From Escherichia coli (GTDB lineage: Bacteria; Pseudomonadota; Gammaproteobacteria; Enterobacterales; Enterobacteriaceae), in NCBI RefSeq assembly GCF_003334315.1, contig NZ_QOWR01000088.1: a stretch of DNA of 10,711 nucleotides, one strand, 5' to 3'. Every line of letters begins with the position of its first letter. Position 1 is the first letter of the stretch. The notes beneath the pieces were generated by a model that saw only the letters and a list, made by a program, of their open reading frames with translations, made no database searches and was not told where the DNA came from. The position numbers were made by a program, and so were the translations under genes. This document shows, piece by piece, positions 2,843 to 2,970 of the stretch.

Positions 2843-2970
2843 CCAGTATCCCCACTGTTATTGTTACCATTTAAAATCAAATTCGTAACAATTAAGACAC
2901 ATTTTATATTGAACGTCCAATCAATAACCGCTTTAATAGATAAACACCGCTGATGAATGGAGTGGCGAAA
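2843..2970. promoter_or_regulatory. betT/betI divergent promoter-operator region (AT-rich; contains inverted repeats 2860-2867/2885-2892 and 2907-2912/2921-2926)
   Basis: 128-bp AT-rich spacer between divergent betT and betI starts. In E. coli the overlapping divergent bet promoters sit in this interval and are repressed by BetI and under anaerobiosis (established knowledge). The inverted repeats attgttac...gtaacaat and tattga...tcaata are seen directly; assigning them as operator sites is inference. Confidence 0.6.

Follow-up and report, generated by a model that had tools for sequence, protein, structure and literature searches.

Two short dyads in the Escherichia coli betT-betI control region as readings of the known BetI and ArcA sites

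The bet control region and the systems described for it

The spacer between the divergent betT and betI genes of Escherichia coli is a described control region with two regulators assigned to it. The BetI operator, betO, was defined in this organism and in this very spacer (Lamark et al. 1996; Rokenes et al. 1996), and genomic SELEX combined with gel shift assays placed a single BetI site between the two genes; according to the literature, choline switches operator-bound BetI without releasing it. For ArcA, Park et al. 2013 (PLoS Genet 9:e1003839) reported a betT/betI ChIP-seq peak in two replicates, an 18-bp ArcA box, atgtgtcttaattgttac, of 14 bits, a site of four direct repeats (DRs), ATGTGTCTTAATTGTTACGAATTTGATTTTAAATAGTAACAAT (their Tables S1, S3, S4 and S6), and direct repression of betT by 5.9-fold and of betIBA by 4.4-fold. 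Two further facets of bet regulation come from single reports: a K-12 cra mutant expresses bet at a lower level, according to a paper that gives no binding site, and a stem-loop in betT coding nucleotides 21-95 contains tandem RNase III cleavage sites that set the stability of the betT mRNA under osmotic stress (PMC4067347).

Two other systems bear directly on the form of the operator. The footprinted BetI1 box of Ruegeria pomeroyi, ATTGACG/CGTCAAT (here and below, a slash in a palindrome marks its axis), is likewise a short palindrome with ATTGA...TCAAT arms that overlaps a -35 box and is bound by a choline-responsive BetI, as in E. coli, but its central bases are ACG/CGT where E. coli has AAC/GTC, and BetI1 and E. 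coli BetI share only about 31% identity (PMC12442346). The promoter of the Cello E1-BetI NOT gate, in contrast, carries ATTGATTGGACGTTCAATATAA, matching the reverse complement of E. coli positions 2904-2925, so that the gate presumably uses E. coli BetI; unlike the native bet spacer, this construct is engineered, with one promoter and without the ArcA site.

The window analyzed here, that is, the whole stretch of 10,711 nucleotides of E. coli DNA, contains the betT/betI locus and, in a comparison with complete genomes, is 100% identical to strain CP53. The bet region, annotated as betT/betI, was found in 5181 of 5426 complete E. coli genomes, whereas about 245 genomes are without it; among roughly 5,190 bet-region matches in the E. 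coli genome collection, 10 are plasmid-borne rather than chromosomal. In the window, betT, the choline transporter gene (677 aa; identified from the open reading frame list and the betT annotation in matching E. coli genomes), occupies 809-2842 on the minus strand, and betI, which encodes the TetR-family repressor (195 aa, starting MPKLGMQS; identified from its translation and the betI annotation in matching genomes), occupies 2971-3558 on the plus strand. With the betT ATG at 2842 and the betI ATG at 2971, the divergent control region spans 2843-2970, which bears out the length of 128 bp given in a first-pass annotation of this DNA. Compared with K-12 MG1655, there is one difference in the 128 bp, c2868 (t in K-12), located outside the BetI operator, so that the operator itself is identical in sequence to betO.

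Additional features flank the region where the regulators bind. The RNase III stem-loop corresponds, by its published sites, to window positions 2748-2822 on the minus strand, that is, betT codons 7-32 (PMC4067347). On the opposite side, a block in the betI leader, 2950-2962 (CTGATGAATGGAG), is almost invariant across Enterobacteriaceae, with variable bases and 1-nt indels downstream of it; within it are a GGAG ribosome-binding site and, at 2953, an upstream ATG that in E. coli is in frame with betI (a 201-aa open reading frame in the list). The downstream indels argue against this ATG being a conserved start, and the block may have to do with the low BetI translation that has been reported.

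Chance and conservation of the two dyads

The first-pass annotation proposed two short dyads in the spacer as candidate operators: dyad 1, attgttac (2860-2867) and gtaacaat (2885-2892) with a gap of 17 bp, and dyad 2, tattga (2907-2912) and tcaata (2921-2926) with a gap of 8 bp. A reading of the window confirmed both sets of coordinates, and a repeat finder reports both dyads, extending dyad 1 to 13-nt arms with 85% complementarity (11 of 13 pairs) and a 7-nt loop. As patterns, neither is clearly above chance. When the AT-rich 128-bp spacer is shuffled with its dinucleotide composition preserved, at least one perfect 6-bp inverted repeat appears in 37% of the shuffles with a gap of up to 10 bp and in 55% with a gap of up to 20 bp, and for a perfect 8-bp repeat with up to 20-30 bp between the arms the proportion is 5-9%. 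By this measure, dyad 2 is unremarkable and dyad 1 is borderline. Because the dyads are statistically weak as patterns, functional claims about them must rest on conservation and experiment.

Conservation was assessed in loci collected by a BetI protein scan with one genome per species, which yielded 80 Enterobacterales loci with 63-94% protein identity, a set that does not include E. albertii, E. fergusonii or the cryptic Escherichia clades. In 76 of these, ranging from Enterobacter to Yersinia, Rahnella and one Stutzerimonas, betT lies divergently upstream and the locus is usable; the other four are cut by contig ends. The sample includes 35 distinct spacers of the 128-bp class, in which the segment 2887-2924 (AACAATTAAGACACATTTTATATTGAACGTCCAATCAA) is nearly invariant, and 39 more distant loci, whose spacers measure 136-435 bp. 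Within the species, the arms of both dyads are invariant in six diverse strains, with polymorphisms between the arms of dyad 1, in their spacer; the positions that vary in other E. coli strains are 2882, 2884 and 2948, none of them in a dyad arm or in the operator.

These data bear on the explanation that the two dyads are fortuitous symmetries of an AT-rich sequence and have no function in themselves. The shuffle frequencies are compatible with it, and neither inverted pairing is kept across relatives as drawn, but this argument extends to the symmetry only: the bases themselves are not neutral, given the near-invariance of 2887-2924 in Enterobacteriaceae and the coincidence of both zones with sites that have experimental support. 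As a statement about the DNA, this explanation is refuted by the binding data, and we consider it highly improbable.

A further inverted repeat, 7 bp long (GTTATTG/CAATAAC, 2857-2863 and 2922-2928, 58 bp apart), flanks the ArcA site and the operator. At the same position, 19 of the 34 other distinct 128-bp-class spacers have GTTTTTG/CAAAAAC, with 7 of 7 pairs, so that the centre pair 2860/2925 is changed on both sides, being A-T in E. coli and T-A elsewhere. This pair change is a single event in T/A-tract DNA and probably arose by chance, with no mechanism evident.

The BetI operator and its register

The BetI operator is identified by conservation, matrix score, synthetic promoter and SELEX as an imperfect 20-bp palindrome, TATATTGAAC/GTCCAATCAA, at 2905-2924, with the axis at 2914/2915. 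Its conserved core, TTGAAC/GTCCAA, covers 2909-2920, the full extent being about 2905-2924, and the consensus across relatives is TTGATTGAAC/GTTCAATCAA. Each of the 76 usable loci contains in its spacer exactly one copy of TTGAACGT followed by C, T or G and then CAA. All 76 loci were aligned by anchoring on this core element, so the invariance of the 12 core positions is partly built in, but T2903-2905, A2908, T2921, A2923-2924 and A2926-2927, in the flanks outside the anchor, are invariant as well. The sole variable core position is 2917, which is C in 56% of the distinct sequences and mostly T in the remainder, and with T at this position the palindrome becomes perfect. Most of the 39 more distant loci have the perfect form, TTGAACGTTCAA; it extends to the 18-bp TGATTGAACGTTCAATCA in several genera and, in several genera among the distant loci, lengthens to TGATTGAAC/GTTCAATCA. 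Of the ten symmetric pairs of the palindrome centred at 2914/2915, 7 are intact in E. coli, and 25 of the 76 loci retain 9-10. In Brenneria, Yersinia, Rahnella, Ewingella and others (loci L060-L079), where the betT-betI spacer is 240-435 bp long, the core (TTGAAC...) starts 98-189 bp upstream of the betI ATG, compared with 60-63 bp in Enterobacteriaceae.

A symmetrised BetI matrix built from ten distinct orthologous 20-mers has a single match in the window, at 2905-2924, with 30.8 bits, the next best score being 7.4 bits. The same segment is found in a synthetic BetI-repressed promoter, for which the mutagenesis primer is NNAATTGATTGGACGTTCAATATAATG (PMC7058928): the 22-nt core of this primer is the exact reverse complement of 2904-2925 (ATTGATTGGACGTTCAATATAA). 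Thus, 2905-2924 is a palindrome in the range of about 14-20 bp with the betI-box half-site TGATTGAAC, it lies within the bet control region and overlaps promoter elements, and it is conserved beside the betI orthologues in 76 of 76 usable loci. The first-pass annotation held that the dyad corresponding to the BetI operator could not be decided from sequence alone; with the matrix, the single SELEX site and the synthetic promoter, the question is answerable, and the answer is the dyad-2 zone. The scans with ArcA and TetR-type matrices that it suggested separate the two zones, the BetI matrix matching at the dyad-2 zone and the ArcA matrix at the dyad-1 zone.

The two operator halves appear to double as promoter elements. 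The left half-site, TTGAAC (2909-2914, plus strand), which is invariant in the 76 loci but lies inside the search anchor, is presumably the betI -35 hexamer, judging from geometry and from the early operator studies. BetI reportedly protects 21 nt over both -35 boxes from DNase I and forms one complex on a 41-bp fragment. The right half-site, TTGGAC (2915-2920, minus strand), would be the betT -35 hexamer, judging from sequence and alignment, at -36 to -31 of the betT start. That start, at 2884 on the minus strand, follows from Park et al. 2013, Table S6, where -18 to +25 corresponds to U00096.2 328627-328669 (the window coordinate is 331529 minus the U00096.2 coordinate), and agrees with Sim et al. 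2014, where the primer for the T7 'full-length betT' transcript begins with GAATTTGATT, the first base of which is 2884. A generic scan for sigma-70 promoters and terminators found no sites in 2780-3030; both bet promoters deviate too much from consensus to be detected in this way, and the hexamers were therefore placed from the published start site. The putative betT extended -10 element, TGtCTTAAT (2891-2899, minus strand; hexamer 2896 to 2891, TG 2899-2898), is supported by its distance to 2884 and is invariant in the 128-bp class; the putative betI -10 element, TTTAAT (2932-2937, plus strand), is located 17 bp after TTGAAC, with T2932 and A2935 100% conserved, an arrangement that fits a betI start at about 2944-2945. 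The betT and betI starts reportedly lie 61 bp apart, which would place the betI start at approximately 2944-2945 on the plus strand. From there, the ArcA site is about 43-85 bp upstream, and the '42 to 88' listed for betIBA in Park Table S6 is 1-3 bp off the prediction from the 61-bp separation. At 30.5 bp upstream of 2884, the operator axis would fall midway between the two starts.

Dyad 2 lies on this operator in a different register. Its left arm, TATTGA (2907-2912), seen both in the window reading and by the repeat finder, overlaps the left half-site, and its right arm, TCAATA (2921-2926), covers the outer flank of the right half-site. Compared with betO, dyad 2 as drawn has its axis 2 bp to the right, and its arms include the non-conserved base 2925; the pair counts place the conserved axis at 2914/2915, 2 bp left of the dyad 2 axis at 2916/2917. 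The shifted register stems from the E. coli right flank, CCAATCAATA, which carries CAAT twice. Could E. coli BetI nevertheless use the register exactly as drawn, TATTGA-8 bp-TCAATA? In E. coli, this dyad is perfect and invariant in the six diverse strains, it is perfect also in Cedecea and in one Citrobacter-like locus, and the synthetic promoter segment 2904-2925 takes in most of both arms. However, symmetry on the drawn axis is not maintained across the orthologues: the distinct sequences have T at 2907 in 75% of cases and invariably A at 2908 (100%), but T2925, in the right arm, is replaced by A in 90%, and all 6 pairs are kept in just 5 of the 76 loci. Moreover, the palindrome on the 2914/2915 axis is perfect over 18-20 bp in distant genera, with BetI proteins 64-67% identical, the synthetic segment stops at 2925 and so is without A2926 of the right arm, and a 6-bp dyad of this kind appears in 37-55% of the shuffles. 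The use of the drawn register by BetI therefore seems very unlikely to us. The register of the operator is fixed, with the axis at 2914/2915 rather than 2916/2917. Of the proposal that dyad 2 is an operator, the zone stands, since it overlaps the BetI operator, and the register does not; similarly, the comparison of orthologous spacers supports the dyad-2 zone on the shifted axis but neither dyad 2 as drawn nor the pairing of dyad 1.

The ArcA site and the first dyad

The published ArcA-P site covers 2860-2902 on the minus strand (-18 to +25 relative to the betT start). It contains four direct repeats with their centres 11 bp apart and is one of the four-DR sites listed by Park et al. 2013; the published sequence is the reverse complement of 2860-2902 except for the single-nucleotide difference at 2868. 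We searched the window with a leave-one-out ArcA matrix built from 114 other published boxes (training range 9.5-21.5 bits). The top match on both strands of the 10.7-kb window is the 18-bp box ATGTGTCTTAATTGTTAC (DR1 and DR2) at 2885-2902 on the minus strand, with 13.8 bits, a score that is reached in 2.7% of the spacer shuffles (P = 0.027), and in-phase matches follow 11 and 22 bp further on, at 2874-2891 and 2863-2880. With a 7-mer DR matrix, DR2 scores 9.3 bits, whereas DR1 (2.4 bits), DR3 (-0.2 bits) and DR4 (4.5 bits) are weak elements. The box is the best match at the homologous offset (11-12) in 51 of the 76 loci, with scores of 8.5-14.9. The site thus has at least two TGTTA-like direct repeats at 11-bp spacing and a box that is conserved in relatives. 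A literature search for an ArcA DNase I footprint of the bet promoter found none, and the assignment to ArcA is based on ChIP-seq and the matrix.

In Yersiniaceae and relatives, the best ArcA matches are weaker and moved by 11 or 22 bp. For loci L060-L079 as a group, the best ArcA-like boxes are weaker, and most of them lie 11 or 22 bp away from where E. coli has its box, shifts that keep the helical phase. The second-best match to the ArcA box in the window, TTGTTATTTAAGGTTTAA, with 12.9 bits, lies at 510-527 on the minus strand, in non-coding DNA beyond the 3' end of betT; the available portion of Park Table S1 lists no ChIP peak between betT/betI and mhpA.

The arms of dyad 1 are two of the four ArcA direct repeats. 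The right arm, GTAACAAT (2885-2892), at -1 to -8 of the betT start and partly inside the near-invariant block 2887-2924, is DR2 (TTGTTAC, 2891 to 2885 on the minus strand), and the left arm, ATTGTTAC (2860-2867), at +18 to +25 in the betT leader, overlaps DR4 (TGGTAAC, 2869 to 2863 on the minus strand), so that the dyad spans DR2 to DR4. The c2868 difference falls within DR4, changing TAGTAAC of K-12 to TGGTAAC here, which is weaker than TAGTTAC of other Enterobacteriaceae. In the 34 other 128-bp-class sequences, DR4 reads TAGTTAC or TAGTTGC on the betT-sense strand and copies DR2 in direct orientation; all 34 have A in place of T2865 and 27 of 34 have C in place of T2886, and dyad 1 keeps 4-6 of 8 pairs, with no compensatory change. 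The dyad appears inverted because the reverse complement of GTTAC is GTAAC and because E. coli has T2865 where the relatives have A. Given that ArcA recognises direct repeats, inverted symmetry is not its recognition feature, and, in these alignments, the inverted symmetry of dyad 1 is an E. coli peculiarity, a by-product of direct-repeat elements. Assigning the left arm instead to an ArcA element on the opposite strand, plus-strand TTGTTAC (2861-2867), by analogy with the rcsD entry in Park Table S4, was considered and rejected, because this copy is out of phase, its position 0 being 24 bp from that of DR2 rather than 22; the minus-strand assignment of DR4 accordingly stands.

Two alternatives ascribe a function to the inverted symmetry itself. 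Dyad 1 might be a genuine operator that arose in E. coli for a dimeric regulator, either as a second BetI site or as a site for another factor; few shuffles (5-9%) contain a perfect 8-bp inverted repeat, this one extends to 11 of 13 pairs and is invariant in the six E. coli strains, and it straddles the betT start, a typical position for a repressor. We nonetheless regard such an operator as very unlikely, considering that the 34 related spacers keep only part of the pairing and show no compensatory change, that the arms match elements of the ChIP-supported ArcA site, which are direct repeats in the relatives, and that a gap of 17 bp between the arms is atypical of TetR-type operators. A second BetI site, in particular, was rejected: the best BetI matrix score in 2845-2885 is -12.3, dyad 1 has neither a match to the betI-box half-site nor its spacing, BetI has one SELEX site, and there is no conservation. 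The other alternative is an RNA hairpin in the betT leader, given that the 13-nt arms could pair around the short 7-nt loop; this is excluded, or very nearly so, with the probability close to negligible, because the right arm, 2885-2892, lies upstream of the betT start at 2884 and is not transcribed, and, in addition, the pairing is not conserved. We return to the direct repeats of the ArcA site as the reading of dyad 1. The claim that dyad 1 is an operator dyad fails on the annotation's own criterion, the conservation of the dyad, whereas the broader suggestion that both zones are plausible protein-binding DNA holds, with BetI at the dyad-2 zone and ArcA at the dyad-1 zone; the annotation's premise that BetI and anaerobic control act on the bet promoters is likewise corroborated by the SELEX and ArcA ChIP-seq literature.

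Very probably, then, dyad 2 is a 2-bp-shifted reading of the BetI operator and dyad 1 consists of DR2 and DR4 of the ArcA site. Both sites have already been described for E. coli, and the feature is an ordinary and explained one. The sole new residue, a minor one, is the lineage-specific flip of a single weak ArcA element. In E. coli, the plus strand carries TTGTTAC at 2861-2867, and the minus strand carries the same heptamer, in inverted orientation to it, at 2891-2885. It is conceivable, although we would call it a long shot, that the E. coli substitutions T2865, A2860 and T2925 (the last shared by a few other genera) converted what had been a direct-repeat ArcA element, TAGTTAC, to a copy of DR2 in inverted orientation, and that ArcA-P might as a result oligomerise differently over the betT start, or a second regulator specific to E. 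coli might gain a site. If so, the anaerobic or osmotic set-point of choline uptake would be different in E. coli.

These assignments suggest the following mechanism. The 128-bp spacer comprises two back-to-back sigma-70 promoters and two separate repressor sites. A BetI dimer, of the TetR family, binds the single palindromic operator centred at 2914/2915, and, because the operator halves coincide with the putative betI and betT -35 elements, one dimer would block RNA polymerase at both promoters, with choline relieving this repression. On the betT-sense strand, ArcA-P binds the four direct repeats that extend from 2902 to 2860 (11-bp spacing, consensus TGTTA) and would polymerise over the betT -10 region, the start and the early leader, resulting in anaerobic repression. 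The -35 and -10 assignments, the steric occlusion and the manner in which ArcA represses betI are parts of this scheme that we infer. Osmotic induction is reportedly independent of both repressors.

The importance of these observations lies mainly in correct annotation, namely, of the operator register and of dyad 1 as belonging to ArcA rather than BetI. More generally, they indicate that a perfect short dyad in one species can be a by-product of direct-repeat elements. For the biology of E. coli, the bet control region would represent a textbook case of the shutoff of two divergent promoters by one dimer, with ArcA adding oxygen control.
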